Origin: Oscillatoria sp. PCC 10802
GTDB taxonomy: Bacteria > Cyanobacteriota > Cyanobacteriia > Cyanobacteriales > Oscillatoriaceae
Assembly: GCF_000332335.1 (NCBI RefSeq)
Contig: NZ_KB235948.1
Location: forward strand, 4,286,977-4,350,976
Direction: 5' to 3'
DNA: 64,000 nucleotides
In this document: in pieces, positions 2,902-29,886 of the stretch
Position numbering within the stretch: the stretch's first letter is position 1
How the letters are laid out: each line of letters starts with the position of its first letter
Position numbers and translations under genes: made by a program
Notes under the pieces: model-generated
Database searches by the model: none
Told to the model about the DNA's origin: nothing
The model's input: the letters and a program-made list of their open reading frames with translations, nothing else

Positions 2902-3066
2902 TATAGCAGTATGCACTTAGGTTAGAAGATTAGACCTTCAGGGGGGGCGTCCCGCCTGCCCTACGTCTATATAGCAGTAAGCATTGAGGAAACCTACATT
3001 CCGGCCTACCTTGCTCCAGAGCTCCCGAAGCTTCTATTTTTCTAACCAATATGACTGTTGCTATAA
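2902..3066. repeat. MITE-like dispersed repeat, family A, complete ~165 bp copy
   Basis: Ends are TATAGCAGTATGCACTTAGGTTAGAA ... TTCTAACCAATATGACTGTTGCTATA. Internal perfect hairpin GTAGGGCAGGCGGGACGCCCCCCC. Near-identical copy at 29724..29886. Confidence 0.8.
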
Positions 3067-3280
3067 GCCTAAATTTCGTTGAGCCAGCCCAAAAGTTTGT
3101 TGTGAGATTACTTGACCGGTGATCCCCAGAGCCGGTCGAGCAATCTCCGAAGCCGGCTGTCTTTTGGAACGATGGCGATACCCCCTCCAGCGGAGCCACT
3201 TCAAAGCGCGGTCTTTACAGACTTGCGATCTAGCAATGGCAAGGGGTTCGGTTAACTCCTCAAATTAACAGCCGGTCCGC

Positions 3281-3490
3281 TCAGTGACTGAGAATGGGGG
3301 TTAATTGCTGCAGTTTGTTTCCCAGCCAATTATAGCCCTTCGCTACGCACTTTGGACAGAGTTCCCCGTAGCTGTCACCCCGCTCGTTGCAGACAATCAC
3401 TCTCGCTTTCCTCATCTGAAACTGCTCCTGGCAGAGCAAGCATGTTTCTTGATTGAAGCTGCCGTCGCACTCAATCTGGAATTGCATCAT
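3281..3490 (-). CDS. Small zinc-ribbon-like protein (two CxxC pairs), hypothetical
   Basis: 69 aa with CLLC..CPKC spacing typical of a zinc ribbon. No homolog recognisable by eye. Confidence 0.35.
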   Translation of the reverse strand: MMQFQIECDGSFNQETCLLCQEQFQMRKARVIVCNERGDSYGELCPKCVAKGYNWLGNKLQQLTPILSH

Positions 3491-4446
3491 ATATTCTTCT
3501 CCTTATTCCAAATGGTGATTCTACAGATTTCAGTACAGTGCCTGAAGTTACGCTAAAAAGCCTGATTTTACCCAAGTGGGGGCTAGCACACAAACGAGAA
3601 GAAGGGAGCTTGTTGAACTCAGGTTCTATAAACTTTTCCGGACTGCCGGTAAAACGCAGCCCCGATGTTTACAGCCAGGAGCAACTTTCCATTTCCGCCT
3701 CAGCAGAATGGATGGGCAGTTCTATCCCTTTCAGTTCCATCCTTGACCGCAAGCGAGAAAGAACTGCGGGTTTATAAAGCACGTCTCCTGTCGCATAGAT
3801 GAGATTTCGGAAGGGTTTTGAGCAATTTGGTATCCTTCAGGAAGGAGCTCTGCCTTTGCCGGTCACAGGAAGTGTTGGAAGTGAGCGGGGTGCGAGCGCC
3901 GGTGCGGATCTAGCGCAATCCAAAGCGCCTTAATTAGTTTAAGTCAGCCGTTCGCAATCCAAGTAGCCAATCATTTCAATTTCCTATCTTTTACAGGCTA
4001 GTTTATCACTGGTTTTTTCTATATCCTTCTACCTTGGGGCATGATTCTGTGTGAAATAAGTTTGTGATATTTAATACAAAGATACCCGAAAAGCCGTCGG
4101 TTGCGGTGATGGAGTGCCGGTGGGGTAAGCTATTTATACCTTTACTCTTCCTGAAGGCGTAAACCCCGAGGTTGTTGTCTCCTACCATTGGTCTGTGCGG
4201 TGTTATCTCTGTTACAGAGCTAACAAAAATCCCTGGCCGGCAGGTGGAGACAAATCGCAGCACCTTCCTCTCCGCCGGTTTCCAATACCTGATTTGAGCA
4301 CTGCCGCACCGGCCTTGTTTCTAGTGCGGTGCGCAGCGCTGCCGGTGCGAACGGACTCTGCTTGCATATCAGCCGGCGGGCAAGCAATTTTAACAGCTGT
4401 TCCAGAGGCGAGCTGGAGAATTCTTAGCTGAGGTCAATGGCCCGCA

Positions 4447-4478
4447 ACTAATTTCTCACCCCCTCACCCCCTCACCCC
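4447..4478. repeat. Heptanucleotide tandem repeat CCCCTCA x4 (STRR-like)
   Basis: ctcaccccctcaccccctcaccccctcagg. A shorter copy at 15510..15526. Reminiscent of cyanobacterial STRR heptamers. Confidence 0.5.
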
Positions 4479-4581
4479 CTCAGGATTTATAGTCATTAAT
4501 CAAACGCAGATGATAAAAGTGGGACAGTGAGTGGACCCCACACACCCACTCAGCCCAGTGTCCCGCCACTCGGCGAACTCT

Positions 4582-5946
4582 TCAGTTATAGGAACTCAGA
4601 GCTGCCTTTCGACTTTCAAACAGTTGCAGCACTCCTGAGACGATCGTCTCCACCACACGCTCGTCGCACTCAGAGAGAAATTCTTCCGACGAAATCGTTC
4701 CCGCAAAAAAGTCCTTGGCCGGCTTCAGGAGATTCCTCACCGAGTTAAACCCGATAGATTTGATGATAAAAGTAGTCGTAGGTGAATTTTTTATATCATA
4801 AGTGGATTCCCGGATTCGCCCCTTTGACAGCAACTCTAGCACTTCGCTTTCCAAGCCATTTGCTAGCTGGTGTCCGTTGGCTATATCGGGCAGGAGGCGT
4901 TCCAGAGCTGCGACCTTCCCGCCGGAACCCGGAAGCTCTCCCATCATGGCTGACAGGGGGATATCCCGTCCCATGCGATAGGAAAGCGCCTCCAGTATGG
5001 CGATCGCGACCAGCTTGCTCCCCAAATACAGCTTCGCCACTTCAATGTTCTTTCGCGTTCGCGCCACCAGGGCTTGGTAAGTCTCATCATCCGGCTCCTC
5101 CATGAACTGCTGGAACACCAACTCAGGTTTCAGGAAGTTCATAAACCCTTCCATCTTTTGCAGCGACCTGCGGAAGTCACGAACCGTGTAAGAATTGGTA
5201 TTTAACAGCTCGTGGTTGGTTTCGGGCAGCAGATTCCAGGTATTGTCCAAAAAATCCGCCGAAACGGAGCAGGCAAAATTTTCAACGTCCCGGTTCGCCA
5301 ATCGCACTGAGCGCTTCACCGCCGCAACGATTTGGGCATCTGTCCAGCCAAACTCGAACTGCCGGTTCGCTGAGGTCAAGCGGTGGTACAGCGCGTCGCA
5401 AGCAGTCAAACCGGACGGTAGCGGGGGGCGGAAGGGAATCGTGGCTTCGATACAGGCGGCGATCTGAGCGATGATATCAGGTTTGAGAAAGGGCTCTAGG
5501 GACTTGCCAGCAATCACAGCGCTGAGAAATTCGTTTTGCCCTGCGAATGGAGAGAGGTTCTGGCCGGCAGCAAACCCGAAGACCGCCGCCACAATCTCGA
5601 ACATGCGGTCTTTTGGCAGTTCCGCAGCCTCTCGAATTACCAGCTGTCCGCGCACCTCCCTGACAAAAGGAGCGATGAAACTGCCGATGTTGAGACTCAC
5701 TCCCTGATCGACTTGCACGTACACAAGGTCGTGAAACAAAGCTGCCAAGACTTCTATGGCATCTTTTGACCCGCCGACCTCAAAAATGTGATCCGGAGTG
5801 TGAAAATAGCGCCACGGGCCAGTCATTGTTTGAATAATCAGCTCAGCCGTCGTCTCCAGTTGCGCCGGCTCGACTTGACCCTGTAGCTGCTTGATGGCCC
5901 ACACCAAACTTTCCAAGCACCGTTGGCGATCGGCTTCCAAATCCAC
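4582..5946 (-). CDS. Hypothetical protein with possible HD-type motif
   Basis: 454 aa with protein-like composition. N-terminal H..(n)..HD pattern (FHTPDHIFEV...AALFHDLVY) suggests an HD phosphohydrolase-like fold. Not firmly identified. Confidence 0.55.
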   Translation of the reverse strand: MDLEADRQRCLESLVWAIKQLQGQVEPAQLETTAELIIQTMTGPWRYFHTPDHIFEVGGSKDAIEVLAALFHDLVYVQVDQGVSLNIGSFIAPFVREVRGQLVIREAAELPKDRMFEIVAAVFGFAAGQNLSPFAGQNEFLSAVIAGKSLEPFLKPDIIAQIAACIEATIPFRPPLPSGLTACDALYHRLTSANRQFEFGWTDAQIVAAVKRSVRLANRDVENFACSVSADFLDNTWNLLPETNHELLNTNSYTVRDFRRSLQKMEGFMNFLKPELVFQQFMEEPDDETYQALVARTRKNIEVAKLYLGSKLVAIAILEALSYRMGRDIPLSAMMGELPGSGGKVAALERLLPDIANGHQLANGLESEVLELLSKGRIRESTYDIKNSPTTTFIIKSIGFNSVRNLLKPAKDFFAGTISSEEFLSECDERVVETIVSGVLQLFESRKAALSSYN

Positions 5947-6367
5947 CGCAAGACCTCCCTTATTCCCTGATTCTTCCTTCTGTTTTGTAGCATAGTATCA
6001 AAGGAATGTCTAAAAATGCCAGATGTGGCTGCCCCGCGCACCCTCTTTTCCGGCTCCAGTCCGACCCTTGGCCGGCACTGCCATGTCCCCACACCCCCTC
6101 GCTCGAAAGCGCGCACTCCTCAAACAGAAGCCATAACTGCAGCGAACGCTTGCGGCTCTCCCCTGCTGTGGCTTTTTGCCGGCCCCACTGACGGAACTGC
6201 TTTCGGTTAATTCCTCCTAATTAATTTCTCCCCACGCTCCCGCACTCCCCCACTTCAGAGCGCACCCTAATTAGAAGGATTCAACCGAAATAGATATCAG
6301 CCGCCCCCTGCCGGCAGTGCCGGTGCGAACTCAAATATTGTGTTACCTGCAATACAAAAGCTCGCAT

Positions 6368-6520
6368 TATAGCATTAGGTTCGTACATTTCCGCCTCTTT
6401 TGCACCCCCGCACTCCGGCTTCTATTGTCCTAACCCATATTACTGCTGGGATATAGACGTAGGGCAGGCGTCCGCCGGGCCGGAAGGTCTAATGTCCTAA
6501 TCTAAGTGGCTACTGCTATA
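6368..6520. repeat. MITE-like dispersed repeat, family A variant (inverted relative to copy at 9943)
   Basis: TATAGCATTAGGTTCGTACATTTCCGCC...GGTCTAATGTCCTAATCTAAGTGGCTACTGCTATA. This is the reverse complement of the 9943..10102 copy. A partial third end lies at 6586..6622. Confidence 0.75.
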
Positions 6521-6848
6521 CGGCGTCGCGCTGGCGCGCCCGCACGGAACGGACGGGCCTCAATATTTCTGGGACAGCAGAGACTGTTGTCCTACGTCCT
6601 AACCTAAGTGCCTACTGCTATAATATCTGCTGCCTGCCTGACGAACGGTTAAATTCTCTGTCACTAGACAGAGGAAACATTAGCAATTTTTTGCTATAAT
6701 CCCACACTTTTAAAATCGGAGGGATAGTGTTGGGTTGTTCGCCTTGGCAAAAGCCTTTTAGCTGGTCGATCTCACTCCTGATTAGAGAGAGCAGCTCGGC
6801 TCCGGGGACAGTCCAATTGTTAATGTTTTATAGCATAACCGGCTCCCT

Positions 6849-8366
6849 TTACTGCACCCAGTGTTTTGCTCTCTCAACCGCTTGACGCCACACGGCGAAA
6901 TTCGCCTGCGCCAGGGAAGCGCCGTCTCCTGGCTGGAAAATCCGGTCAATCTGGCGGCGGGCGATTAGGGCGGAATAGTCTGGCCAAAAACCCGCCGCTA
7001 AGCCCGCTGCAAAGGCGGCTCCCTGTGCGGAGGCCTCTTTAACGACTGGACGCTCAACCGGCACTCCCAAAACATCCGCCTGAAACTGCATCAAAAAATC
7101 ATTGGGGCAGGCTCCTCCGTCCACCTTCAGCAGGGCGATATCGGTGCCGGTATCGCGGTTAATCGCCTCTACGACTTCCTTGACCTGGTATGCGATCGCC
7201 TCCAGCACGGCGCGCACCATGTGTTCTCGGCGCACGGAGCCGGTGATGCCGAAAAACGCCCCCCGCGCACTCATGTCCCAGTGGGGCGCACCCAAACCGC
7301 TCAAGGCGGGGACAAAGTAAACGCCGGCGGTGTCAGCCACCCGCTGCGCCATCTGTTCGGTATCCGCCGCCGCCTCAATCAGCTGGATGCCATCCCGCAA
7401 CCACTGCACGCAGGCTCCAGTGGTGAAAATGCTGCCTTCTATAGCATAGCCGGCTCGCACCGCACCGCTCTCAGCCGCCTGTGTCCAGGCAATGGTGGAG
7501 AGGAGCAGGTGGCGAGAGCGCTGCAAGGTATCGCCGGTGTGGGCGACCAGAAAGCAGCCAGTTCCGTATGTACACTTCAGCAAGCCGGGGCGGTCGCAGC
7601 CGTGAGCGAACAGGGAAGCCTGCTGATCTCCCAGGATAGCAGTCACCGGCACCGGCACGCCCAGCAATTCTGGCTCAGTGCTGCCAAAGAACCCCAAACT
7701 CGGCTGAATAGAAGGCATCATAAAAGCGGGAATCCCAAAAAGCTCCAAGAGTGACGCATCCCACTCCCGGGAAGCCAGATTCATCAGCATCGTGCGGCTG
7801 GCGTTGCTGCAATCGGTGGCGTGCACAGCCCCGCCGGTCAGCTTCCAGAGAATCCAGGTGTCAATGGTGCCGGCTAGGACATTATCCAGATTCGCCGGGG
7901 ACTCTTGCTTCTGGAGATACTCCTGCAACCAAGCGAGTTTCGTGGCAGAAAAATAGGCGTCCAGCACCAAGCCGGTGCGCTCGGCGATGTCTGGGGCGCA
8001 ACCGCGCTCGGTTAATTGATGGCACAGGGGAGCGGTGCGCCGGTCTTGCCAGACGATAGCATTGTGCAGGGGCCGCCCTGTGGTTTTGTCCCACAGCAGG
8101 CAGGTTTCTCGCTGCACCGAGAGCCCAATCGCCGCCACCTCCGCTGCAGCTACCCCCGCTTTCTGCAAAGCAGTCCGCATCGCCCAACAGGTATCCCGCC
8201 AAATTTCTTCAGGATCGTGCTCTAGCCACCCCGGCTGGGGGTAATATTGAGTCAGCTCTCTGTAAGCAGAGCTGACTGCCCTCCCCTCCGCATTGAACAG
8301 CATCGCCCGGTTGCCGGTGGTGCCGAGGTCTAGAGCCAGAATGTAGCCTTGAGTAAATTGACTCAT
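6849..8366 (-). CDS. glpK: Glycerol kinase
   Basis: 505 aa. N-terminal YILALDLGTTGNRAMLF..PQPGWLEHDPEEIW and the FGGY-family motifs throughout. Confidence 0.9.
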   Translation of the reverse strand: MSQFTQGYILALDLGTTGNRAMLFNAEGRAVSSAYRELTQYYPQPGWLEHDPEEIWRDTCWAMRTALQKAGVAAAEVAAIGLSVQRETCLLWDKTTGRPLHNAIVWQDRRTAPLCHQLTERGCAPDIAERTGLVLDAYFSATKLAWLQEYLQKQESPANLDNVLAGTIDTWILWKLTGGAVHATDCSNASRTMLMNLASREWDASLLELFGIPAFMMPSIQPSLGFFGSTEPELLGVPVPVTAILGDQQASLFAHGCDRPGLLKCTYGTGCFLVAHTGDTLQRSRHLLLSTIAWTQAAESGAVRAGYAIEGSIFTTGACVQWLRDGIQLIEAAADTEQMAQRVADTAGVYFVPALSGLGAPHWDMSARGAFFGITGSVRREHMVRAVLEAIAYQVKEVVEAINRDTGTDIALLKVDGGACPNDFLMQFQADVLGVPVERPVVKEASAQGAAFAAGLAAGFWPDYSALIARRQIDRIFQPGDGASLAQANFAVWRQAVERAKHWVQ

Positions 8367-8609
8367 CGTCAGCTGGCGTCAGTTATTAGTTGCTCTACCA
8401 TTGTGCCGGTGGCAGTGTGCTTTTACTCTCGGAAGGAGAAGAAGGGTGTCTGGGAACGAGAAAAAGCAACCGCCGCCAATAAAAATTATCCGCGAGCGCA
8501 GTTTCACCGGCTGCGCTCGCGGTTGTGCTCTCGTCTCAGGCAAAGACGCACGCTGATTGCGTCTCTACCGGCTTTTTTAGCAGGAATGCACCCAAACCCA
8601 CCGAATCGC

Positions 8610-9176
8610 TCACGATGTCGGAGCCGGTTCAGAGGCGGGAGTGGCTTCAGTCTGGCTCACGTCAGGAGCGTGTTGCTTGACACCTTCGCTCTCAGCTTCT
8701 AGAGTAGGCGTTGCTTCTCCCCCAGGGATTGCGCCAGAACTCTCACCCAAATTGATCCTCACCACTCGGCGCTGCGCTTCTTGCACCTTAGGCAGAGTCA
8801 GCGTCAAGATGCCATTCTTGTAATCGGCTCCCACCCGATCGTTCTGAACCGGCACAGGCAGGGGAATGGCCCGCTCAAATTTCCCGTAACGGAATTCCGA
8901 CCGGAAATAACCCTTTTCTTCCACCTTGTTTTCGTAGCGGTGTTCGCCGGCAATATAAACGGCGTCCCGAGTGACTCGGATATCCAAATCCTTTGGTTCC
9001 ATCCCAGGGATTTGCGCCCGCAGTAAGAGGTGGTCATCCGTATCTTGGAGTTCAACAGCAGGGGCCCAAGTCATCTCGTACTCGCGCCTGCCGCCTGACA
9101 GTTCCTCAAACAGTTCGTCAAACTGACGGCGTAACGTTTCGATTTCCCTGAAAGGTTGCCAACGTATTAATGCCAT
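8610..9176 (-). CDS. Hsp20/alpha-crystallin small heat-shock protein with Pro/Glu/Ala-rich C-terminal tail
   Basis: 188 aa. The alpha-crystallin domain spans APAVELQDTDDHLLLRAQIPGMEPKDLDIRVTRDAVYIAGEH...GKFERAIPLPVPVQNDRVGADYKNGILTLTLPK. Confidence 0.85.
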   Translation of the reverse strand: MALIRWQPFREIETLRRQFDELFEELSGGRREYEMTWAPAVELQDTDDHLLLRAQIPGMEPKDLDIRVTRDAVYIAGEHRYENKVEEKGYFRSEFRYGKFERAIPLPVPVQNDRVGADYKNGILTLTLPKVQEAQRRVVRINLGESSGAIPGGEATPTLEAESEGVKQHAPDVSQTEATPASEPAPTS

Positions 9177-9942
9177 ACGTTCAGTTCCCTCCGTTCCAGT
9201 TTACAGCTTTTCGGTTTTTGGTTTTTGGGTTTGATAGCTGCCAGTCAAATCGCTGCATATTTTGCTTGTCCGACCGGCATCAAGCGACCAACTGACCCGA
9301 CGCAAGAAAACCCGTTCAGCTGTCATATGAGCTGCGGATAACTCACGCCAATCGCCTCTCTCAAATGAGCCTTACTGGTTACTTCGATCTCAATTTCATT
9401 ATGTCTCGCCGCACAGTGTAGTCAGTGGGGAAAACCCTACTCTGTCAGTGGTATTGCCCGCACCTTTTGTGAGAGACACTGCTGCCGGCAGCTTGATGCC
9501 AATCCCTGGCTATTGTTGGGTTCGGCTAAACGGAAAGTGTTGCTGGAGTCTCACTCCGCCGCATCCTTTTCGATAAGCCCGACAGCCCTTAAGTGCGGCG
9601 ATCTGTGCCGCAACGCACCCTGCAGTGCGGGGAATCTTTCTTGGGAGTTTCATCTGTCCAGCTGCCTGTCTGAAAAAATCAAGGAACAGCTTGCCGGCAG
9701 CTAGAAACCCGGTTTTTTGCTCCCGCCGGCAGATTCAGATTTTTTGCGACCTCTTGCTGACTGGCGCTTACCGGCCTTTTCCTGATTCTGCCGGCACCGT
9801 AACCATTCCTGAGAGAAGTTACAGGAAAGAAATCAAGCTGCAGCGCCTTGCCAGCCGAGCCGGTTTGGTCGATGTAGGGCTTGAACTTGATTCAAAGACG
9901 TGCCCTAATATCGAAATAATATAGAGGAACGCTTACTATAAA

Positions 9943-10102
9943 TATAGCAGTATGCACTTAGGTTAAAACATTAGACATTCAGGGCAGCCAGACGCTGGCC
10001 TACGTCTATATCCCAGTAGTAATATGGGTTAGGACAATAGGAGCCGGAGTGCGGGAGTGCAAAAGAAGCCGAAATGTACGAACCTAAGTGGCTACTGCTA
10101 TA
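9943..10102. repeat. MITE-like dispersed repeat, family A
   Basis: TATAGCAGTATGCACTTAGGTTAAAAC...GTACGAACCTAAGTGGCTACTGCTATA. Inverted copy of 6368..6520. Confidence 0.75.
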
Positions 10103-10609
10103 TCCCCTCAAAACAGAGAACTATGATAAGTTGGCCGCCTAGCAATCACAAAGAATTTCTGTAAATTTATATTTTCTCTTTTCTTGGCGATCTTGGCGTC
10201 TACCCAACGGGCAAGCCGCTGGCGCGTCTATGGCGGTTTCTTTAAAAAAATATTTTCCAGACCCCAATTTAAATCGCTCTATAACTGTACCAAACTGGCT
10301 TTTGTTTCCGGCAGCAACCAGGAAAGGCCGTAGGGGCGAACAGGGGCGGTTTCGCGAGAAATCTCTCGGGGAAGCGGAGGAGATTTATCAACCCGTACCT
10401 ACAGCTGCCGGCTGGACTTTCCTGCTAATTTGGGGGTCAAAGGGAGTCAGGAGGCCATGTTATCCCTCGTTCCCAGCCTGAGGTAGGGAACGACTTCCTA
10501 GAGGCTCTGCCTCCTGTGGGCAGACAGGCAGCATTATTAGCCTAACAGCTAAGTTTCGCTGTGGCGGCCCAGCTCTGATGGGGAAAGAGTAATTTATTTT
10601 ATAGCAGCA

Positions 10610-10765
10610 GTCATATGGGTTAAGACAATAGGAGCTTCGGGAGCGGGGAAGCAAGGGAGGCCGGAATGTACCTTCCCTAAATGCCTACTGCTATATAGAC
10701 GTAGGGCAGGCGTCCCGCCCCCCCTGAAGGTCTAATGTTCTAACCTAAGTGCATACTGCTATATA
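10610..10765. repeat. MITE-like dispersed repeat, family A (CATATGGGTTAAGAC-type ends)
   Basis: TATAGCAGCAGTCATATGGGTTAAGACAATAGG ... internal ACGTAGGGCAGGCGTCCCGCC hairpin ... TTCTAACCTAAGTGCATACTGCTATATA. Confidence 0.75.
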
Positions 10766-12152
10766 GCTTATCTGCCATTCAATAATGTTAGTAAATCTAG
10801 CGTTTCTCATATTAGTGAGGGGCATAGAAACCCGATTTCCGGCCCCTAGCTCATCCAACTGAGAACCGCTATATAAAAATTGCCCGGGGGAGAAAGCGGA
10901 ACTTGGAGTGGCGGGCAGTTATGGCGCATAGATTTTGCACTACCCATCTCTATTCTCTCGTTACCAGGCTCTTCCTGGGAAGGCAATCTGGAGGCTCTGC
11001 CTCCTTTCAACGGAAAAGCAGGTTAAAAGCCGAAGAGCTTATTGACCGCCCTGCCGAACGCACCCGGCGGGTGGCGAGCTCTGTGGTGAGATGGGAAAAA
11101 TCCCAGAGGAGTCACAAGAAACCTGGTTTGTGGGGGTGGCTCAAAGGAGTCAGCTGGGTTGTGGGCGCGCAGGGAGCCGGCTGCCGGTTCTGGGGAACTT
11201 GGAGAGGGGTGCGCCTGCAGCCTGAGGCCAGTGGGGGGGAATTGGGCCTGTAGCAAGTGAATTTATGCCAAATCAGTTAGTTGGTGTTGATTGCCGTTTC
11301 TACTGCGAGACGACCGGCGTTGTTGAGATTGGGGAAATTGCTTGACGTTTTGCACGTTTTGCCCATTGCCGCCGGCAGCATCTCATGCGGCGAATGCGGC
11401 GGCAGGCGCTTGTGGCAAGCTGGCTTTTGTCGTATAGAGCGGTTCTCAGTCACAAAAACCGCACGGAAAGAAACTTCACCCGCCAGCCAATGCAGTTGCT
11501 CCCCTCCCCTGGAAGGGGAGAGGTCAATCTGTACTGCATCACACTAAAAATCCCTGTATGCAGCAGTGGCAGTCAGCTGATGCCCGCAATCAGCCCGAGA
11601 AAAAATCACTTCAGACCGGCAATAGCCAGAACAGCCGAGCTTGCAAAAAGCCGGCGCTACGCACCTGTAATCCCGCGTTGATAAAAGAGTTGTTTGCCGC
11701 ACTCTGTGCGAGTGCGGCTGTGCGCGGAAAGCGCCAGAGGCAATACGGGTGGGAGGAAGCATCAGGTGTGCGGTTGAAGAAACCGCCAGTATAGCAGAGA
11801 GAAGAGCGGATTTCGCATCTTTCTTCATGCGAGCTTTTGCCCACAGAATTAGCGCTCCTCTCTGAGCGGAAAGGGTTGATGTTGTTTGATGCCGCCAGAG
11901 GTGCGCCCAACTTTTCGGTCGGCGACACACTCCCGCCATCCTCCATTGAGCCGCCTGAACTTCTAGGGAACCGGGCGGACATCTCCCATTGCGAATTGTC
12001 GCGGTTCCCTGACAGAGAGTTGCAATGGTTTAGAGGGCCCGTCTGAACGTGGGGTGGGGGGAATTTTTTCATCGCGCTTCCTCCCGGTCGCCCCCCATGA
12101 CAGGCCATCCCCTTAACGGGAAAGGAAAGGGAGGGCAAGGCTCGGGCGCTTC

Positions 12153-12611
12153 TCAAGCAACAGCAGCGGTTTCTTCGCCGGATTCCGACTCCTCAGGGGC
12201 AGCGGATTCACCTACGTAGATGAGGTGAATATGTTTGTACCCGAGGCGGATTTCAAACTGATCCCCTGGCTTGAGTCCCATCTCTTTAGTATAATTTGAC
12301 CCAATTACCAGCTGACCATTTTTGTGGACACTGACGCGATAAGTCGCTTCGCGTCCCCGGCCATCTTTGGTTCCCGTTGGATCTAAGGCAATCCCCTTAG
12401 CCGCCAGCACCGCGTCGTAAAAATCGGTGAGATTGACTTTGACATTGCCACTGGAGCTGGTGCTGTAGTATCCGCAGCGCTTTGCTGTTTCCCGGCGGGG
12501 CAGGTGGGAAAGCTCTTTGACTTTTTGCAGGAGCGCCTTTCCGGTAAGGGTTGGGTATTCTTGTTCTGGTGCCATAGGTTCTCCGAAAATTGTTCTTGGA
12601 TCTCGCGACAA
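12153..12611 (-). CDS. AbrB-family transcriptional regulator (cyanobacterial cyAbrB/CalA-like)
   Basis: C-terminal SpoVT/AbrB swapped-hairpin motif VHKNGQLVIGSNYTKEMGLKPGDQFEIRLGYKHIHL. The true start is probably the internal Met at about 12575 (MAPEQEYPT). Confidence 0.7.
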   Translation of the reverse strand: MSRDPRTIFGEPMAPEQEYPTLTGKALLQKVKELSHLPRRETAKRCGYYSTSSSGNVKVNLTDFYDAVLAAKGIALDPTGTKDGRGREATYRVSVHKNGQLVIGSNYTKEMGLKPGDQFEIRLGYKHIHLIYVGESAAPEESESGEETAAVA

Positions 12612-14528
12612 TCTAATTTAAGCAAAAATAGGTGCTGTTTGACAATAGGGTTTTTCGGAAAAAGCCAAAAAAGCAGCCGGCAATGGGGGCAACGGGTCAA
12701 GTCTGACTCAGATTGCCCTCCTTGCAGCGGTTCGGGGCATCGCCGGACTTATGCCTTGGAATGTTGCGGCGGTTTTGTGCCCCCTCCTTGTTTTGCTGCT
12801 CGCGCAACCAGGAGTTGCGCTTGTCCGGGGTTGCCGGAAGGAATTGTGAGGAAGTTCTGGCAGTTTTCAACAGAGGCGCTCTCATGGGAAGCCCCTAAAC
12901 TGTTGAAGTTGTCTGGAAGCGGTCGCCCTTTTTAGGGGGTGGAGAGCGCCCCGGCTTTACAGGTGGCATCAAGGGCGGGTTTGCACAATCGGGTGCGGGC
13001 TGGTGCGTGGGGAGTGCAGATGGGGTCTTGCCGGACGCCGGGCTTTTTGGAATTCCGTCGGGGCGAGCCAACTGCTGCGCAGAGTGCCGGCGAGACTAGA
13101 GTGTCCAAAAAAGGCTCCCCCTTCCGCAATATAACGTCCAGTTGATTGTCCGGCAAGCGGGATTGAGGGCATCGGGCGGCGGCGGGGAAGGGCATTGAGG
13201 GGCAGCGGCTCTCGAGGGGGAGAGGAATTAATTGCGGTCAATTGACCGGACACTATATAAACGAGCAATTCTGGGGAGACGGGGGAATGGGGGAGGAGAA
13301 ATTTTCTTCGATTGCTGGCACGCTCAGACGCTTACTCGCCAGCCCTCAAGACGCTGCTGTGTCAGGACTTCTCCAATTTCGGCACTCCCGCCACAGCCGC
13401 CGCCTCCCCCGGAAGGCAGGTTTTTTTCCCCTTCAACAGCCCCCAAACAGCACCGGTTGAGGGAGCCAAAAGGCAAGCGCCACAACTGCAGCAATCCGCA
13501 CAGCTTGCAGCGCGCCGGCAGCGGATTGTCAGCCGGTGCTGACGCCCCCTGCCAGTTATGGTGCTCTCCAGACAATTCAAAGCAAGCAACTCCCTCACCT
13601 GGCAGCGCGCAACCCCACTGGCGGCAAGCGTACCGGCTAGGTGTTTAGCCGCACAGAAATGCCACTTTTGAGCCGAACTTCACCCGCCATACTGCCTCGC
13701 ACAGCCCGGCGGCACCGCTGGCAAAACTGGTTTTTTAATCGCCTGCGTGGCCACGCTGTTCTGTCGTCTCCGGTGAATTCACCTTAAAAAAGACCCTCAC
13801 CCCCATCCCCATCCCCAAAATGGTAGAGGGGAGAAAAATCCAGTCTTTTTCTCACTCCCCCTGACTGCCAGTGGGAGAGGGGCGCTGGGAGCCCCTCTGG
13901 GGATCGGCAGAGCGGGGGTGAGGGGGTGGGTTTTGCCGGTCAGCCGGCGCTATTAGATGAGTATTTTTTCTCGGCTCTCCCCCCGTCAAGCGCCAAAGGA
14001 AATTGCTCTGGTGAAGCGCCCGAATCTGGCAACCGCTGCCGCCCCACACAGGAGGCGATTTTGTCAGCCGGCAGCAGACCGGGCCTTTCAAACGGATCGA
14101 GGGCCGGCTTTGAGGATATCCTTTTTGCTAAAGTGCGGATTTAGGCTCCTCAGTCAAGCCGGCACTCTCGGGCCTGCAGCACTCATAATAGCAGTCGGTG
14201 ACGCTGGCACCGGCATAAAGAAAGTCTTTATCTTATCAGAAGTCACAGGCGCATATAATATTGATCGCCCCAACCGCTGCGTGCGCCCTTTGCCGCATTC
14301 CTCGCACAGGGGAATTCGCTCGCCACCGGGCGCAGATTTCCGGTTTCCATTCCGCCGGCGTGGCAAACGGGCAGCACTTTCTGAGATCCCCAGTTCCCGC
14401 AACTGCGGCTTTGGGCGCGCTGCCAGCCCCCAAACGGGGAAAAAGCCCGTTTGGGTGGGGACCTCTGTTGGATATTGCCGGGAAAAGCCTTCCGAAAGGC
14501 ATCTCTCTGGTTTATATTTGGACTGGAG

Positions 14529-15113
14529 TCAGCCAGCCGGCGCTTTGCCCCCTTTTCCCGAGGTGGCTGCAGTGTTTTTCTCCGGTTCGGGATCGGCAAA
14601 GGCCGGTTTGAGCAATTTCCAAGCCTCTTCTGCCTCTGGCAGCAACTTGTCGAACTCTACTTTGGCCGATGCCAAGCTGCTTAAGGTTTTAGCAAAAGCC
14701 TTATCTTGCGCCAGCTGGATTTGTTCAGCGCTTAAAGGTGTCATCGAAAAGACTGCTTCTATCAGCGCCATATATTCGCTAGCCTTTTTCTGCTGATCTT
14801 GCAAATCCGCTCTCTTTAAGGCAAATTCAGCTACGGTCCTAGCCGCCCTCTCTATAGGTGACAGGTCCTCGCTCCCCTCTGGAGGCTGATTTGACGGGGG
14901 TTTCGGTGCCTCTACGAAGATCAGATCCTTGGCTCCCAGTCCGTCAGGAAAACTATTGCTGTCGATTTCAGAAGTCTCTTCGCTCATCATGCGCATCACC
15001 TCATCTAGGGCTAGCGCCCGCGTTTTTTCGCTATCTTCTTTCCCCGGAACCGTAATGGTTAGACCGGGATGGTCTTTGACTGTGTAGGTTACCGTTAATT
15101 TACGCCGGCCCAT
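14529..15113 (-). CDS. Hypothetical acidic/coiled protein
   Basis: 194 aa with protein-like composition and no repeats. It overlaps a less plausible plus-strand ORF (13957..14796), which I reject. Confidence 0.4.
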   Translation of the reverse strand: MGRRKLTVTYTVKDHPGLTITVPGKEDSEKTRALALDEVMRMMSEETSEIDSNSFPDGLGAKDLIFVEAPKPPSNQPPEGSEDLSPIERAARTVAEFALKRADLQDQQKKASEYMALIEAVFSMTPLSAEQIQLAQDKAFAKTLSSLASAKVEFDKLLPEAEEAWKLLKPAFADPEPEKNTAATSGKGGKAPAG

Positions 15114-16192
15114 AAGTTATCCTCGGTGCAGACTCTTTGGTATTTTACATTCTAACAAATTCTCTCACAGGCGCGTGTGAGTGGAAATAGGCGCTGGGTA
15201 TCGGGTTGCTAAATGATGGGAACGCACCGGATTCCCCCTGGCGGCGTCCCCTGTCAAGCCCTTGCAGAAACTGCCGCCTATTTGATGCTTGCGCGTTCGG
15301 GATCTTTCGATTTTTACATCGCCGGCACAGGCGGGACGCCTGTTGCGGGACGCTCGCAAGGCACGCGACTGCTAGTTCGTGTAAATTTTCTCCCTTTTGG
15401 CCGGGACCCGCATTTTAGAATTGCGATCTCAGAACCGGCTCTTTAGGTGTTGAGTGAGTCAAACACTGAGAGCGCCAGCGCTCCCTCGAAGCCTCTTGGC
15501 GTGCGGTCTTTCTCACCCCCTCACCCCCTGCCTAAAGCCAGTTTTAATGCTTGCTCCTGCAACAGGTTACCGAAAATTCGGGATGACTCACGCTCCTGAC
15601 GCTCGCGTGTTTTGCCGATTCCACCGGCACAGCAATCTGGCCTTTCTATCCCCGCAACTGTGGGTGTTTCCCGCCCGACAAATCAAGTCAGTTGTGGGAA
15701 TTCCTCGGGGAGTTTAAGGGGTTGAAATTGCGCCTCCCTCACAGGCGCTTGCAGGAACACACTGATGCCGGCGCTGCCCCGAATTCGTTGGGCGCAAGCC
15801 TTATCTTCCAGAATACTTGACCGCTCAGGGGTGGCGCGATTGCCGGTGGCGATTGCCCAAAGCGCGGTGTGCCAGTGAGAGCGTTAACTAGCGCGCGCCG
15901 GTCAGCGATTAAACACTAGCTGAATTATGCGGGTTTCTCTGCCTGGAAAGACCGGTTTCTGGGATTGTCCCGAGCGGTCCTGTAGCGTGAAAGTGTCTCA
16001 GGTTGAATGCCAGACCGAAAAGCGCCGGTGGGAATCCTCACCGTTTGTCGCCCCACCGGCAATCGGGCGCTGATCTCATTTTTTCTGAACTGATCGTCAT
16101 ATCCCTCTTCTGTCACGTTGGGGCAATTTGACGAATTTGCGCTATTTCAGGGAACGACAGATCCGGCTTTCACCCTTGTTTGACAAAAGAGG

Positions 16193-16364
16193 GATATAGC
16201 ACTATGCACTTAGGTTAGAACAAGGGGTTTAACATGATGTAGGGGCGGGTTCACCCACAATCTGTGCCACACAGCTACAACACCGATAAACCCGCCCCTA
16301 ACCTCTGATAGAGCAGCCGGCAATTGGGCCATAGCGTGTCTTAACCAATATGACTGCTGCTATA
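16193..16364. repeat. MITE-like repeat family A with nested GGGGCGGGTT hairpin (family E)
   Basis: GATATAGCACTATGCACTTAGGTTAGAAC ... GTAGGGGCGGGTTCACCC...AAACCCGCCCCTAAC ... TCTTAACCAATATGACTGCTGCTATA. Confidence 0.7.
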
Positions 16365-16701: not shown

Positions 16702-16809
16702 CTATAGCAGCAGTCATATTGGGAACGGAGATCAGTGGCCTAGGGATAAGAGGCGTAGGACAGGCGTCCCGCCTGTCCTACTGTCCCGGTCTAAATAAAT
16801 ACTGCTATA
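16702..16809. repeat. MITE-like repeat family A, short copy with GTAGGACAGGCGTCCCGCCTGTCCTAC hairpin
   Basis: CTATAGCAGCAGTCATATTGGGAAC ... GCGTAGGACAGGCGTCCCGCCTGTCCTACTG ... AAATACTGCTATAA. Confidence 0.7.
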
Positions 16810-16842
16810 AGACCGGAATTTCCTTGCTCGTATTCTAAGGTA

Positions 16843-16930
16843 CTCGGTTTCTGGGAGAAGAAAAAACCGGGTTTCTTTGGGCGAGAGTGCCCGATTTACA
16901 GGCTCCCGTCCCAAGAAACCCGGTTTTTGG
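16843..16930 (-). terminator. Two GAAACCCGGTTTC-type hairpins downstream of recG
   Basis: CTCGGTTTCTGGGAGAAGAAAAAACCGGGTTTCTTTGG and CAAGAAACCCGGTTTTTGG lie 3' of the minus-strand recG stop at 17102. Confidence 0.4.
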
Positions 16931-17101
16931 CACAGATAAGAAATGATAAAAAATAAATAAAATTTGGTTGATTGCTCATTATGTAGCCGGTCGGGGCGTG
17001 CTGCCGGACGGACATCAGGAGCGCTCAACCGAACTGGCTATGGCGCAGGCACAGCCTGCGCCAAGCGGCAAAACCCCCACGAAAAACGCGGTCAGCCGCC
17101 G

Positions 17102-22920: not shown

Positions 22921-22921
22921 A

Positions 22922-27398: not shown

Positions 27399-27464
27399 TG
27401 GCGTTAAAAAAGTTCCGGGTAAAAGTGACGCAATCGAATCTGAGAGCTGCGCGGCCAGAAACCG

Positions 27465-27493
27465 GGTTTCTTTGAGAAACCCGGTTTCTCGGC
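27465..27493 (-). terminator. AGAAACCGGGTTTCTTTGAGAAACCCGGTTTCT hairpin, terminator of GHL10 gene
   Basis: Inverted repeat 12 nt downstream of the stop of the 27505..28857 gene. Confidence 0.5.
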
Positions 27494-27504
27494 TTCTATA
27501 AATT

Positions 27505-28857
27505 CTATCCCGCTGGAGTTGGCTTTTGCAAAAGTTTCGGTCGTGTGGCGGGCTCAGAAAAAATGTCCTGGAATGCCGCGCGGCGCTCCGGTGGCGACTC
27601 GGGTGCGATATAGCCCCACAAGCTCTCCCAGTAAAAAAAAGAGACGCCATTAAATCCGCGCTCGCGAGCCACCTGCACTTGCTTCTCGATTTGCTCCATA
27701 GCGACAGGACGCCCCCAGGTTCCGGTTGATATCCCCACGCCCACGGGAATCTTGCTGCGAGCCGCCGCCAGAGCCGGTTTTTGCAATTCCTCCACAAAAG
27801 TTGTCATGTCACCTCGATATACCTGCACCACCAATTCCTCTACCAAACCGCGCTGCACCCAAGTCGGCCAGTCTTGCAGATAGAGTTTGTATGAATAATC
27901 TTGCGAATTGGGAGACAGGGATATAATGCAGTTGGGGCTGACTGTTTTGACAGCCTGGTAGACCTTTTGCATGAAATCCGTAATCTTGTCGGCTCGCCAG
28001 CGCATCCACTCGGCGTCTCTGGGATTGTCAGGAGGGTTTTTGCCTGCGTGCTCTTGCTGGTAAAGCCGGAGCGTGAAAGGATCGTAACCGAATTCCACCG
28101 GCATGGCAAAGCGATCGTCAATTTGAATGCCAGCGACTCCATATTTACTGACAACTTCCACGAGCAAGTCGAGCATGAACTTCTGCACTTCTGGGTGGAG
28201 GGGGTTGAGCCAGACTTGGCTGATCTCCATCTGCTTGAGGATAAACTGCCTGACGTTTTCCCACACCGGCTTGGCGGTTGAATTGCCAGAGTCGATGCCG
28301 TTCTGTTCGTCGGCAATCTCCTTGAGAATCTGGCTGCTGTTGCGGCGAAAAGTCACCCACTCCGGGTGCCGGCGAACCAGTTCTGAGTTCGCCGGTGCCA
28401 TGAAGCCATACTCAAACCACGGGATAACGTCCATCTGGTAGCGGTATCCCTGTTTGATTATCTCCGCCAGGGAATCCTGCCCCAGCCGCACCAGCCCCAG
28501 CAGTGGCTCTCGATCTCGCCCCGTCACCTGTTTCGCCACCTGGCTCGGGTAAAAGGTCTGCCCCCGGTTCCACACGACCGGATATACTGTATTAAAGTTT
28601 AGTTGCGAGAGCTGCCGCATCGCTCGGTTCACCCCCCACGGGGCAAATAGCACTCCGCTAGTCACATTGGTCAGCCACACGCCCCGCACCTCTGTTCTAG
28701 CCGCCGGCGCGGCGGGAGAGCGGACTCCCACCGGACTCCCAACCCCTGAGATCCCATTGGGGTTGCTTTCGCTAAGTTGCCACAGCGCCGCCAGCAGCGC
28801 CAGTCCCAGGCATAGCAGGTACACCAGCCATCTCTTGTCAAATTTCTTCTTGCCCAT
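27505..28857 (-). CDS. Glycoside hydrolase-like family 10 (GHL10/DUF187) lipoprotein
   Basis: 450 aa. Signal peptide/lipobox region LVYLLCLGLALLAA. RGVWLTNVTSGVLF...NFNTVYPVVWNRGQTFYPS...VIPWFEYGFM TIM-barrel signature of the YngK/GHL10 family. Confidence 0.8.
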   Translation of the reverse strand: MGKKKFDKRWLVYLLCLGLALLAALWQLSESNPNGISGVGSPVGVRSPAAPAARTEVRGVWLTNVTSGVLFAPWGVNRAMRQLSQLNFNTVYPVVWNRGQTFYPSQVAKQVTGRDREPLLGLVRLGQDSLAEIIKQGYRYQMDVIPWFEYGFMAPANSELVRRHPEWVTFRRNSSQILKEIADEQNGIDSGNSTAKPVWENVRQFILKQMEISQVWLNPLHPEVQKFMLDLLVEVVSKYGVAGIQIDDRFAMPVEFGYDPFTLRLYQQEHAGKNPPDNPRDAEWMRWRADKITDFMQKVYQAVKTVSPNCIISLSPNSQDYSYKLYLQDWPTWVQRGLVEELVVQVYRGDMTTFVEELQKPALAAARSKIPVGVGISTGTWGRPVAMEQIEKQVQVARERGFNGVSFFYWESLWGYIAPESPPERRAAFQDIFSEPATRPKLLQKPTPAG

Positions 28858-29480
28858 CGTCCCTCAATAGCTGTGTTTACTGCTGTCAGAAGGTTTGAGT
28901 AACGAGCGCGCACCTTTGGTTCCGAGTCTCGCCCACCTGTGCCACCGGCAGCCGGGCGGTAACAGCGCTTTCAACCCTGGCGCTCCTGCAATTCCTGGCG
29001 AACCCCTTATTCCCTAAATCCCCCACTTGTCCCCTCTTTTTATAAATTTTGTTAATCTCGCACTGCCGGTCGAAAACAAGCTTGTCAATCGGTGAAATTA
29101 TAGAACGCGCTCTCAATCCGCTGCAACTGCGAGCGCGGCACCCTGAACCGGCACCGGCACCGAAACGCTCAAAAAATCCCCGCCAGAGCCTGACTTCCCC
29201 CCCTTCCTCCGGCTGGCTGCGCCGCGTTCTTCAACAAACCTCACTTTCCCCGCTCCCCCACTCGCGTTTTTCCAACAAAATCTTAACAATCGCCCCTCGC
29301 GCCAGACTCACAGCCATTCCCACTCGCCGGTCGGGACAGTTGCCATCCCGCCTGCCAAGCCGGGCACTTCTCTAAAACTTGCCGGCGTTCTAAAGAATTA
29401 TACAGAAATTAGCGGCCTGCCCTTTCATCCCCTCGTTCTGGGGCAGAAGCTGGGAACGCCGCTTTGGAGGCTCTGACTTG

Positions 29481-29579
29481 AACAGGACTTACGCTTGCGT
29501 CTCTATCTGTAGGGTGGGTTAGCGCTAGCGCGTAACCCACCACGCACCACATGAAGTGTCGCGGCCTAAGTCCTGTTGA
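29481..29579. repeat. Dispersed inverted-repeat element, family C (ACAGGACTTACGC...GCGTAAGTCCTGT)
   Basis: Termini are reverse complements enclosing GTAGGGTGGGTTAGCGCTAGCGCGTAACCCACC. A second inverted copy lies at 61403..61500. Confidence 0.7.
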
Positions 29580-29609
29580 AAATGTTTGTAGGGGCGGGTT
29601 CACCAACAT

Positions 29610-29726
29610 CTGATATAATAGTATGCACTTAGGTTAGGACATTATATCAAGAGGGTCGGAGGGAACGCCTGCCCTACGCCTTTTTCCCTAGGTCACGGAT
29701 GTCCTAACCAATATGACTGCTGCTAT
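29610..29726. repeat. MITE-like repeat family A, short copy
   Basis: TAGTATGCACTTAGGTTAGGAC...GTCCTAACCAATATGACTGCTGCTATA. Directly abutting the next full copy. Confidence 0.7.
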
Positions 29727-29886
29727 AGCAGTATGCACTTAGGTTAGAACATTAGACCTTCAGGGGGGGCGGGACGCCTGCCCTACGTCTATATCGCAGT
29801 AAGCATTTAGGAAACGTACATTCCGGCCTCCCTTGCTCCAGAGCTCCCGAAGCTTCTATTGTTCTAACCAATATGACTGCTGCTAT
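29724..29886. repeat. MITE-like repeat family A, complete copy (about 95% identical to 2902..3066)
   Basis: TATAGCAGTATGCACTTAGGTTAGAACATTAGACCTTCAGGGGGGGCGGGACGCCTGCCCTACGTC...GCTTCTATTGTTCTAACCAATATGACTGCTGCTATA. Confidence 0.8.

Follow-up and report, generated by a model that had tools for sequence, protein, structure and literature searches.

MITEs of the Stowaway type, a plant family derived from Tc1/mariner elements, are short and non-coding, carry terminal repeats like those of their partner, duplicate TA and fold as rods. REP palindromes are normally tied to HUH/RAYT transposases. Among cyanobacterial IS630-family elements, ISY100 (ISTcSa) moves by cut and paste, duplicates TA and requires only 30 bp at each end (PMC2170065), and ISMae21 is an IS of 956 bp (PMC2779907). 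Nezha, a MITE of ~130-170 bp in Anabaena variabilis and Nostoc PCC 7120, shares its repeats with ISNpu3 and is known from filled and empty sites (PMC3184786); its reference copy has the 10-bp direct repeat CATTATCTAC (PMC6042816). The available text of Di Nocera et al. 2013 describes GTAG-tagged REPs of cyanobacteria, including GTAG-15 dimers of A. variabilis embedded in TATAGGA...TCCTATA palindromes. MaeMITEs of Microcystis and the MITEs of Anabaena sp. 90 are abundant, intergenic, short inverted-repeat elements that are sometimes tied to pseudogenes and rearrangements; those of Anabaena sp. 90 are classed as type II, there being no IS with the same ends.

The 64-kb stretch of DNA analyzed here (the window) carries a repeat family, family A, of eight full or near-full copies (107-170 bp) and one 63-bp fragment between 2.9 and 29.9 kb; a first-pass annotation had counted about eight copies of 105-170 bp in mixed orientations. 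Copies indeed occur on both strands, with strand defined by the orientation of the TATAGCAGTATGCACTTAGG end. The density given there, about one per 8 kb, needs correction: nine copies crowd into the first 30 kb, and 30-64 kb holds none. Allowing up to one mismatch, TATAGCAGTA occurs 19 times in the window (0.99 expected) and GTAGGGCAGGCG nine times (0.38 expected), both far above chance expectation. Copies 2902 and 29724, previously put at about 95% identity, are 94% identical; the values are 93% for 10600 and 29724, 88% for 2902 and 10600, and 94% for the cores of 6368 and 9943. The annotation had read recent spread from this likeness; the spread holds, but its recency is only moderate, with copies 88-94% identical and no identical pair. 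The copies stay below the 600-bp size bound of a MITE, and the ORFs that overlap them are short and have no family match in a Pfam scan. Family A in this window is a genuine but ordinary set of dispersed repeats.

Table 1. Family A copies, solo hairpins and an empty target site in the window. P-left, X and Y are modules described in the text.
Feature	Position	Strand	Remarks
164-bp composite MITE	2902..3065	+	P-left 2902-2969, then TA, then whole X-type element 2970-3065
Empty TA target site	4146..4150		L022 orthologue filled: 97-bp MITE + duplicated TA
153-bp composite MITE	6368..6520	-	P-left + Y-type element
MITE fragment	~6560..6622	-	One terminal repeat + degenerate REP-like hairpin
160-bp composite MITE	9943..10102	+	P-left + Y-type element
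164-bp composite MITE	10600..10763	-	P-left + X
Solo REP-like hairpin	15328..15344		Core CAGGCG-GGA-CGCCTG only
170-bp MITE	16195..16364	+	Interior with different nested repeat
107-bp MITE	16703..16809	-	Degenerate ends; perfect 12-bp REP-like palindrome at 16755-16781
114-bp simple MITE	29614..29727	+	Adjoins the 29724-29887 copy
164-bp composite MITE	29724..29887	+	Junction CTGC-TA-TAGCAG; TA-TA beyond far end
Two solo REP-like hairpins, 34850 and 34910	34846..34932		
Solo GTAG-type REP hairpin (at 44654)	44640..44705	-	In apparent decayed L014-type MITE interior, terminal repeats lost
Solo GTAG-type REP hairpin (at 52990)	52987..53015	+	GGGGACAGGCG-GGA-CGCCTGTCCTACGTCT

Copies are bounded by imperfect inverted repeats of ~28 nt, which read TA-TAGCAGTAnnCAnnTnGGTTAGRACAT at one end and its imperfect inverted complement, TTCTAACCAATATGACTGCTGCTATA, at the other. 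The two motifs that had been taken for opposite termini, TATAGCAG(T/C)A and CTTAGGTTAGAA, both lie within the same ~28-nt end. All ends in the window read TA-TAG..., with one mutated exception (TA-TAATAG at 29614), and no duplication beyond TA is seen outside the window copy ends. One end of the copies still spells the close of a transposase gene, its final three codons plus the stop (ATGTCCTAA). Elements of 100-170 bp with the same terminal sequence are present in Oscillatoria, Anabaena, Nostoc, Symploca, Calothrix, Lyngbya, Leptolyngbyaceae and other genomes; conservation across these genomes is restricted to the termini, and the interiors vary and are unrelated. An element of the Oscillatoria princeps RMCB-10 MAG (L046) shares 102/113 positions (90% identity) with the 29614-29727 copy.

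An autonomous element with matching terminal repeats, as the annotation had envisaged, is found in an uncultured Oscillatoria MAG, the closest available relative, as a 961-bp IS630-family insertion sequence with family A's ends (L018:3482-4442). Its transposase contains HTH_Tnp_IS630 (E 1.5e-13) and DDE_3 (E 7e-26) domains, encoded in two frames that meet at an A9 run, and the fused protein scores 192 bits against a cut-off of 100 with the NCBIfam IS630 equivalog model NF033545. The better MITE end matches the right inverted repeat (IRR) of this IS at 26-28/29 positions, whereas the other end type matches the IRR at 21-23/29 and resembles the left inverted repeat. Further IS copies with these ends occur at L062, L063 and L058, with remnants at L064 and L065. 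On plasmids of Nostoc, Gloeothece and Leptolyngbya, elements annotated as "IS630 family transposase" likewise begin TATAGC, and the Nostoc UHCC 0926 element begins TATAGCAGTAGCCATATACGTTAGGACAT. Family A thus very probably consists of non-autonomous type I MITEs derived from an IS630/Tc1-mariner-family IS of an Oscillatoria-like cyanobacterium, and is a new member of an established kind. It is type I, unlike the MITEs of Anabaena sp. 90, because a matching IS630-family partner exists.

The L018 IS (961 bp, ~290 aa) resembles ISY100 and ISMae21 in size class, imperfect repeats of ~24-29 bp, two N-terminal HTH motifs plus DDE, and TA flanks, the likeness to ISY100 being one of description. ISY100 is described with a single ORF, whereas the L018 frame is split at the A-run, presumably to be read by a -1 frameshift. 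Among the matches listed, tblastn hits to the transposase come in two or three pieces and never in one, a pattern that suggests a conserved frameshift. Since the frameshift is present in 3/3 IS copies of the closest lineage and one of these, L062, is clearly degenerate, it may reflect decay rather than programmed frameshifting. Exact-protein look-ups returned only short Logan contigs, which break at the repeats. The window elements, unlike ISY100, carry no transposase. No transposase gene was found in the 64-kb window or in the other loci retrieved by the genome scan, and an active IS in this particular genome is putative.

Mobility was assessed at orthologous loci of the same MAG, L022 and L026, both in synteny with the window; L022 aligns to window 3-7287 at 72-95% identity. 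Presence/absence differences are seen at three sites. The 2902 copy is missing from the orthologous L022 site, L026 carries a MITE absent from the window, and window 4146 is empty where L022 is filled (3197-3297). At this last site the gap is exactly 99 nt, equal to the 97-bp element plus TA, and a 4-bp TATA duplication would require 2 nt more. The flanks of the other two sites are too diverged for the junctions to be read. On target-site duplication, a check proposed with the annotation, one clean filled/empty pair fits insertion at TA with these 2 bp duplicated. The mobile MITE-like family proposed there is borne out by short non-coding copies, terminal repeats matching an autonomous IS630 element, TA flanks, and orthologous presence/absence. 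As identity among copies is 88-94%, never complete, and several ends are damaged (6368, 16703), present activity is only putative; the end at 6368 lacks 9 nt of the terminal repeat, so the 6368-6520 copy is probably immobile.

Family A shares with Stowaway elements short length, lack of coding content, terminal repeats like the partner's, a TA target and a rod fold. It differs in its bacterial host, its bacterial IS630 partner, and its mosaic interiors, which include REP-like palindromes. Nezha is a cyanobacterial MITE of similar size with IS-shared ends and filled/empty orthologous sites. Membership of family A in Nezha was rejected, since a 2-bp TA as opposed to a direct repeat of ~10 bp indicates a different transposase family.

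The 153-164-bp copies are composites of half an element and a whole element. P-left, which in the 2902 copy comprises a terminal repeat and a degenerate REP-like hairpin, agrees at 61/70 positions with nt 1-70 of a complete 131-bp element (L047), which has TA exactly at the junction position. The second modules match whole elements elsewhere, X at 78/95 positions (L008) and Y at 75/94 (L039). In the window and in L062, P-left runs directly into the TATAGCAG end of another element, and three different elements serve as its partner.

We propose that the copies, which retain just ~28-bp imperfect terminal inverted repeats and no protein-coding content, are mobilized in trans by the ~290-aa transposase of a full-length IS. 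HTH_Tnp_IS630 would bind DNA and DDE_3 catalyze, in a protein read via a -1 frameshift at the A-run; both ends would be bound, the element excised by double-strand cuts and pasted into TA, and the TA duplicated. Because inserted elements end in TA and are flanked by TA, their ends would be new targets, giving abutting pairs and nested insertions. The 29724-29887 copy seems to have used the TA at the end of the 29614-29727 copy as its target, and the same abutting arrangement is found in L036. If the transposase then acted on the outer end of one element together with the far end of the element beside it, a new composite MITE could result, and we infer such a sequence of events for the composites.

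The internal GC-rich palindrome is best read as a small repeat in its own right, of the GTAG-tagged REP type. As written in the first-pass annotation, the perfect hairpin GTAGGGCAGGCG..CGCCTGCCCTAC is absent; a 12/12 palindrome occurs in 1/9 copies (16703-16809), as the A/T variant GTAGGACAGGCG-GGA-CGCCTGTCCTAC. In five copies the arms are 7-8/12 complementary, and in three an arm is absent. The hairpin is also not specific to the family: 5/6 of the cores in the window (n=6) lie outside family A, standing alone at 15328, 34850, 34910, 44654 and 52990. The consensus of these solo hairpins, GGGACAGGCG-RGA-CGCCTGTCCTACGYCT, reads (C)GTAG-GACAGGCG-...-CGCCTGTC on the opposite strand and agrees with the GC-rich 20-40-bp palindrome, GTAG-tagged at one end, that marks this REP type. 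Across the window and the related-genome loci, 15 cores are inside or close to MITEs and 16 stand alone, a ratio biased because the loci were chosen for containing MITE ends. Like the GTAG REPs in the available text of Di Nocera et al. 2013, the hairpin, (C)GTAG-GACAGGCG-loop-CGCCTGTC(C), is GC-rich and found solo or inside TATAG-ended inverted-repeat elements, a likeness of description rather than to the GTAG-12/-15/-16 consensus. It differs in that one arm is degenerate in most family A copies.

A tentative reading, which we consider unlikely, is that of a chimera in which GTAG-type REPs colonize, or are captured by, IS630-type MITEs and ride along. The TA immediately 3' of the hairpin (CCTACGYC-TA) would be a preferred IS630 target, repeatedly seeding composites. 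If so, DNA hairpins would guide where Tc1/mariner-type elements integrate in bacteria, with MITEs as vehicles for the spread of REPs.

Three 164-bp composites have the same interior and three unrelated flanks, and a second interior is common to two further copies. Such sharing at unrelated loci calls for amplification after the short form arose. It speaks against each copy being an in-situ remnant of a full-length IS630 element, its interior deleted locally, that was never mobile as a short element. IS copies of the lineage are indeed decaying and cut by other insertions (L062, L064 and L065), and the transposase stop-codon region is kept at one end of each copy, as expected on that account; outside the terminal repeat, however, nothing in the interiors is similar to the transposase gene, and we regard local decay as very improbable.

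Still harder to sustain is the suggestion that the copies are REPINs (REP doublets) moved by a RAYT (HUH tyrosine) transposase instead of an IS630 DDE enzyme. The GTAG tag of the palindrome does resemble the GTAG REP superfamily of cyanobacteria, and its occurrence outside the elements implies dynamics of its own; a REPIN/RAYT explanation may hold for the hairpin alone. The elements themselves, however, are bounded by TATAGC... inverted repeats and not by REPs, three copies wholly lack a palindrome arm, the match of the ends to an IS630 element extends into its coding sequence, and TA is duplicated. No RAYT (Y1 transposase) gene is present among the 40 window ORFs scanned against Pfam.

As RNA, full-length copies fold stably: the 164-nt copy forms a rod closed by its two ends (-63 kcal/mol, z -4.65), and the 107-nt copy has a z of -5.1. 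In addition, the palindrome exists in two variants, GGGCAGGCG/CGCCTGCCC and GGACAGGCG/CGCCTGTCC, set apart by a change in each arm. Both observations would suit structured noncoding RNA genes or cis-regulatory RNAs (terminators, attenuators or sRNAs, as the annotation had suggested for the hairpin) that function as RNA and are not mobile. Rod folding is nevertheless expected of any element with inverted terminal repeats, and the hairpin is degenerate in 8/9 copies. The whole window has no Rfam match at gathering scores, and at E<=1 the sole match in 2700-30100 is to a miRNA model, irrelevant here and not within any copy. In 2000-18000 there are 23 terminator-like sites (GC-rich stem plus T-run), about as many as in shuffled sequence, and none overlaps a copy; after the hairpin, one strand reads GTCTATA and the other CCCCCCTGAAGG. 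With conservation across genomes only at the termini, both orientations in use, copies missing at orthologous sites in the relative and no fixed context across relatives, a conserved RNA gene, the refutation envisaged for the mobile reading, is hardly credible.

Some copies show further features. The 16195-16364 copy contains a nested repeat, GTAGGGGCGGGTT...AAACCCGCCCCTA, that is kin to repeats at 61.6-61.9 kb. The first-pass annotation placed all copies in intergenic DNA, and none overlaps a Pfam-supported ORF; yet the fragment end at 6622 directly adjoins a truncated pseudogene remnant (6621-6836). The 6368-6520 copy and the 6560-6622 fragment stand in place of 1.69 kb present in L022, and this pair borders a 1.7-kb deletion which truncated a gene.

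Repeat finding and sequence extraction delimited the copies of family A, a MITE-like repeat family, in the window, a chromosomal stretch of ~55% GC with housekeeping genes for a GH2 hydrolase, an FGGY kinase, HSP20, RecG, ribosomal protein S2, and ArgG; a search for tRNA and tmRNA genes found 0. Allowing at most one mismatch, the motif TATAGCAGTA is matched 19 times in the window against 0.99 expected and GTAGGGCAGGCG nine times against 0.38, so the repeats listed in the first-pass annotation are indeed present. The three 164-bp copies share 88-94% pairwise identity, and the cores of the 6368 and 9943 copies (named by start position) are 94% identical. Sensitive BLASTN with every copy as query revealed no further members in 30-64 kb, where only isolated internal hairpins matched. 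The main reading in that annotation, mobile MITE-like repeats, is right, but some details need correction. The two quoted "termini" are pieces of a single end, and the opposite end is its imperfect inverted complement. Similarly, the internal hairpin described as perfect is so only in the 16703 copy, as the variant GTAGGACAGGCG-GGA-CGCCTGTCCTAC; elsewhere its arms have 7-8 of 12 complementary positions (five copies) or an arm is missing (three copies).

Positions of family A members, solo REP-like hairpins, and palindromic doublets in the window (strand is relative to the TATAGCAGTA-bearing end)
Feature	Position	Strand
Family A copy	2902-3065	+
Family A copy	6368-6520	-
Family A fragment	~6560-6622	-
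Family A copy	9943-10102	+
Family A copy	10600-10763	-
Family A copy	16195-16364	+
Family A copy	16703-16809	-
Family A copy	29614-29727	+
Family A copy	29724-29887	+
Solo REP-like hairpin	15328	
Solo REP-like hairpin	34850	
Solo REP-like hairpin	34910	
Solo REP-like hairpin	44654	
Solo REP-like hairpin	52990	
AGAAACCCGGTTTCTTnAAGAAACCGGGTTTCT doublet	2298-2339	
AGAAACCCGGTTTCTTnAAGAAACCGGGTTTCT doublet	27453-27498	
AGAAACCCGGTTTCTTnAAGAAACCGGGTTTCT doublet	31751-31797	
AGAAACCCGGTTTCTTnAAGAAACCGGGTTTCT doublet	31921-31964	
AGAAACCCGGTTTCTTnAAGAAACCGGGTTTCT doublet	40759-40793	
AGAAACCCGGTTTCTTnAAGAAACCGGGTTTCT doublet	46480-46514	
AGAAACCCGGTTTCTTnAAGAAACCGGGTTTCT doublet	49240-49289	
AGAAACCCGGTTTCTTnAAGAAACCGGGTTTCT doublet	51358-51399	

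A degenerate form of the end, TATAGCAGYANNCAYWTWGGTTAG, was scanned against one genome per species and occurs at at least 54 loci. Of those listed, one lies in a MAG labelled Sericytochromatia and all others in cyanobacterial assemblies; the genomes include Oscillatoria, Anabaena azotica, Nostoc, Symploca, Calothrix, Lyngbya, Cyanothece, Leptolyngbyaceae, and others. In nearly all listed loci the motif opens a 100- to 170-bp unit closing in ...GCTATA, with interiors that vary between lineages. One viral-contig match to the degenerate terminal repeat, in a 34% GC contig, has no element structure and was taken as chance.

An autonomous element with matching ends, for which the first-pass annotation had proposed a search, is absent from the window and present in L018, a locus that, like L022 and L026, comes from the MAG uncultured Oscillatoria sp. 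SRP220891_co5_255, the nearest relative available. This 961-bp IS630 unit (L018:3482-4442) has both family A-type ends and two ORFs, matching HTH_Tnp_IS630 (E 1.5e-13) and DDE_3 (E 7e-26), the second in the -1 frame, with an A9 run where the two overlap. Joined into one 290-aa protein, they score 192 bits with the NCBI IS630 equivalog model and so pass its cut-off of 100. This protein has 1,756 relatives (E ≤ 1e-20); among the best 120 of these, those with names are almost all "IS630 family transposase," mostly cyanobacterial. Every listed tblastn match of the transposase on plasmids falls in two or three pieces, never one, suggesting that the frameshift may be a conserved feature. Across the window and the 54 loci listed in the first genome scan, tblastn detected the transposase only in L018. 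Annotated IS630 elements on plasmids of Nostoc UHCC 0926 (beginning TATAGCAGTAGCCATATACGTTAGGACAT), Gloeothece PCC 7822, and Leptolyngbya boryana also begin TATAGC, and two further copies of the L018-lineage IS (L062 and L063) have the same ends. A metagenome scan with the exact terminal repeat returned three loci, two of which are IS remnants severed by MITE insertion.

Family A ends in the window are identical to the right inverted repeat of the L018 element at 26-28 of 29 positions. A second end type, TATAGCAGCAGTCATATTGGTTAG, agrees with it at 21-23 of 29 and has GTCAT.T..GG in common with the left inverted repeat. The first end type contains ATGTCCTAA, the final three transposase codons and the stop codon, and their retention is direct sequence evidence that family A descends from the IS. 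The ~28-nt end is conserved widely over cyanobacterial orders and therefore offers a simple probe for this IS630 lineage and its derivatives. Family A works like Tc1/mariner-derived MITEs, with every defining feature that could be tested found in it; any active partner that this genome encodes would lie outside what the window covers.

Comparison with the related MAG bears on mobility. L022 is collinear with window positions 3-7287 (72-95% identity), and L026 is collinear with 40889-43269 (92%). This small aligned extent (~7 kb plus one further locus) contains three presence/absence differences: L022 lacks the 164-bp copy at 2902, and the window lacks the MITEs at L022 3197-3297 and L026 79-209. 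One clean filled/empty pair sets GCTATTTATACCTTTAC in the window against GCTACTTA-TA-[TAGCAG...CTGCTA]-TA-TCTGCAC in L022, with a 99-nt gap, the exact length of a 97-bp element and the duplicated TA together. Insertion had earlier been proposed at TA or TATA; the 2-bp TA duplication holds at this one clean pair, whereas a 4-bp TATA duplication, which would need two extra bases, is ruled out, as 2 bp account for the empty site with no indel. All window ends read TA-TAG... but for one mutated end (TA-TAATAG, 29614), with no additional duplication outside. This TA pattern is the signature of IS630/Tc1/mariner transposition. The cyanobacterial ISY100 duplicates TA on insertion in vitro and requires only 30 bp of each end (PMC2170065), which would explain the movement of such short derivatives.

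Further, 1.69 kb of L022 is missing from the window (window 6276-6836 versus L022 5552-7549); the window lineage has a deletion here, bounded by the 6368 MITE and the adjacent fragment. Relative to L022, the window has lost an esterase-like 237-aa ORF, and of a neighbouring 197-aa ORF it keeps only residues 1-72 and an in-frame stop (6621-6836, minus strand), a remnant that ends right at the MITE fragment. Family A marks real genome change: compared with the nearest available relative, a 1.7-kb deletion has truncated a gene and insertions differ at three sites. Searching with the exact ArgG and HSP20 proteins recovered only short Logan contigs, which share the window's structure and stop in or at repeats. 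Family A explains the fragmented assemblies of this organism. Those Logan contigs that can be placed on the window break off at dispersed repeats, and the HSP20 contig ends inside family A elements.

The 164-bp copies are ruled out as simple elements by a second, partly degenerate TATAGCAGTA inside them (at 2970, 10686, and 29792) and by matches to whole elements elsewhere; they are composites. P-left, their opening 68-70 nt, agrees at 61 of 70 positions with the start (70 nt) of a complete 131-bp element in Oscillatoria princeps (L047), which has TA exactly at the junction position. The remaining ~96 nt (X) match the whole L008 element at 78 of 95. The 153- and 160-bp copies consist of P-left and another whole element, Y, which agrees with the L039 element at 75 of 94 positions. 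The halves fold poorly alone (z -0.7 and -0.3), whereas the composite folds into a rod (z -4.65). The flanks of the three 164-bp composites all differ, so their spread followed the formation of the composite. In the mechanism we envisage, one element would insert into a TA inside another, and the host's outer end and the guest's far end would then serve together as the ends of a new mobile unit. The abutting pair at 29614-29887, with CTGC-TA-TAGCAG at its junction and TA-TA after the second element, fits insertion into the neighbour's terminal TA; L036 has the same arrangement. A different nested repeat, related to repeats at 61.6-61.9 kb, lies in the 16195 copy. The composite junction CCTACGTCTATATNGCAGTANGCATT had 0 matches in a metagenome scan. 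Composite and REP-bearing copies provide a tidy natural example of new MITE variants arising.

The first-pass annotation had assigned the internal hairpin to family A, but it also occurs outside family A copies. Since it occurs solo and has the GTAG tag, we treat it as a repeat of its own, putatively REP-like, that lies within some MITEs. Related Oscillatoria loci carry it both solo and inside elements; its consensus is GGGACAGGCG-RGA-CGCCTGTCCTACGYCT, preceded on the other strand by GTAG. This tag defines the GTAG superfamily of REP sequences, which has been reported in cyanobacteria, and in Anabaena variabilis REP dimers are embedded in TATAGGA...TCCTATA palindromes (PMC3733652). No RAYT, the Y1 transposase tied to REPs, was seen among the 40 window ORFs scanned. 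A suggested role of the hairpin as a terminator, attenuator, or sRNA finds no support in the sequence. No terminator-like site overlaps a family A copy (window 2000-18000), and the only promoter-like site in the copies is a 9-of-12 match on the border of the 10600 copy; for both kinds of site the totals were at shuffle level. Rfam gave nothing relevant at gathering scores over the whole window or at E ≤ 1 over 2.7-30.1 kb. For annotation, the copies are best masked and given the label IS630-type MITE, not taken for RNA genes or regulatory hairpins.

Family A belongs to a well-known kind of element, and a literature search of limited reach found no published description of the family itself. 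Nezha membership is ruled out by the 10-bp direct repeat of Nezha. The MITEs of Anabaena sp. 90 are "type II," and family A differs from them in having a matching IS. Elhai et al. (2008) reportedly described small dispersed repeats lying within MITE-like sequences of cyanobacteria, and family A is probably linked to their "SDR" elements.

The window holds other repeats. A second small family with two hairpins, GGAGGCAGAGCCTCC...GTTCCCAGCCTGAGGCTGGGAAC (10459-10515, 29430-29478, and 30238-30294; also L026 ~215-270, L016, and L039), is often near family A copies, and two of three ArgG-bearing Logan contigs stop exactly at the edge (30296) of one such repeat. The eight copies of the palindromic doublet AGAAACCCGGTTTCTTnAAGAAACCGGGTTTCT form a third dispersed family, mostly just downstream of genes and possibly terminator-like. 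A 140-bp unit containing GGCGATTGGAAATCGCGGCTATACAAACGAAGCCCGCCTTCGCGGGCT is in tandem at 36095-36451 and inverted at 36532-36708, with relatives at 42429-42684 and 60987-61063. Positions 61521-62210 form a dense non-coding repeat array. Its 28-nt unit, GTTTGTAGTTGGGCTTTAGCCCAAAAAG, runs head to tail without spacers and so is not CRISPR-like; its 111-nt units with GTTGGGGCGGGTTTATT...CCCGCCCC have a relative nested in the 16195 MITE.

The 1.5 kb at 3068-4580 has no ORF of >100 aa, yet is 77-88% identical to L022 and contains the empty TA target of the clean pair; it may hold small genes or non-coding RNA. Long 12-nt-period tandem repeats (38393-38896 and from 41493 onwards) lie in two paralogous large ORFs, 36762-39125 (STAND/AAA_22 NTPase-like) and 40861-42483, whose flanking segments are 75% identical; L026 is 92% identical to the latter ORF. 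A 551-aa ORF at 44731-46386 (minus strand) weakly matches major vault protein repeat and shoulder domains and Band_7 (E 1e-7 to 1e-4), a set unusual for a bacterium. Adjacent genes at 48089-50613 (minus strand) match Methyltransf_33 (E 1e-116) and DinB_2 plus FGE-sulfatase, and we take them to be an EgtD/EgtB pair for ergothioneine biosynthesis. Pro/Ala/Gly-rich coding tandem repeats with periods of 18-33 nt occur within 55994-59838 (at 56.2-56.4 and 58.2-58.5 kb), and in the 62263-63933 region a 123-nt-period repeat (62953-63981) lies within a 556-aa ORF.
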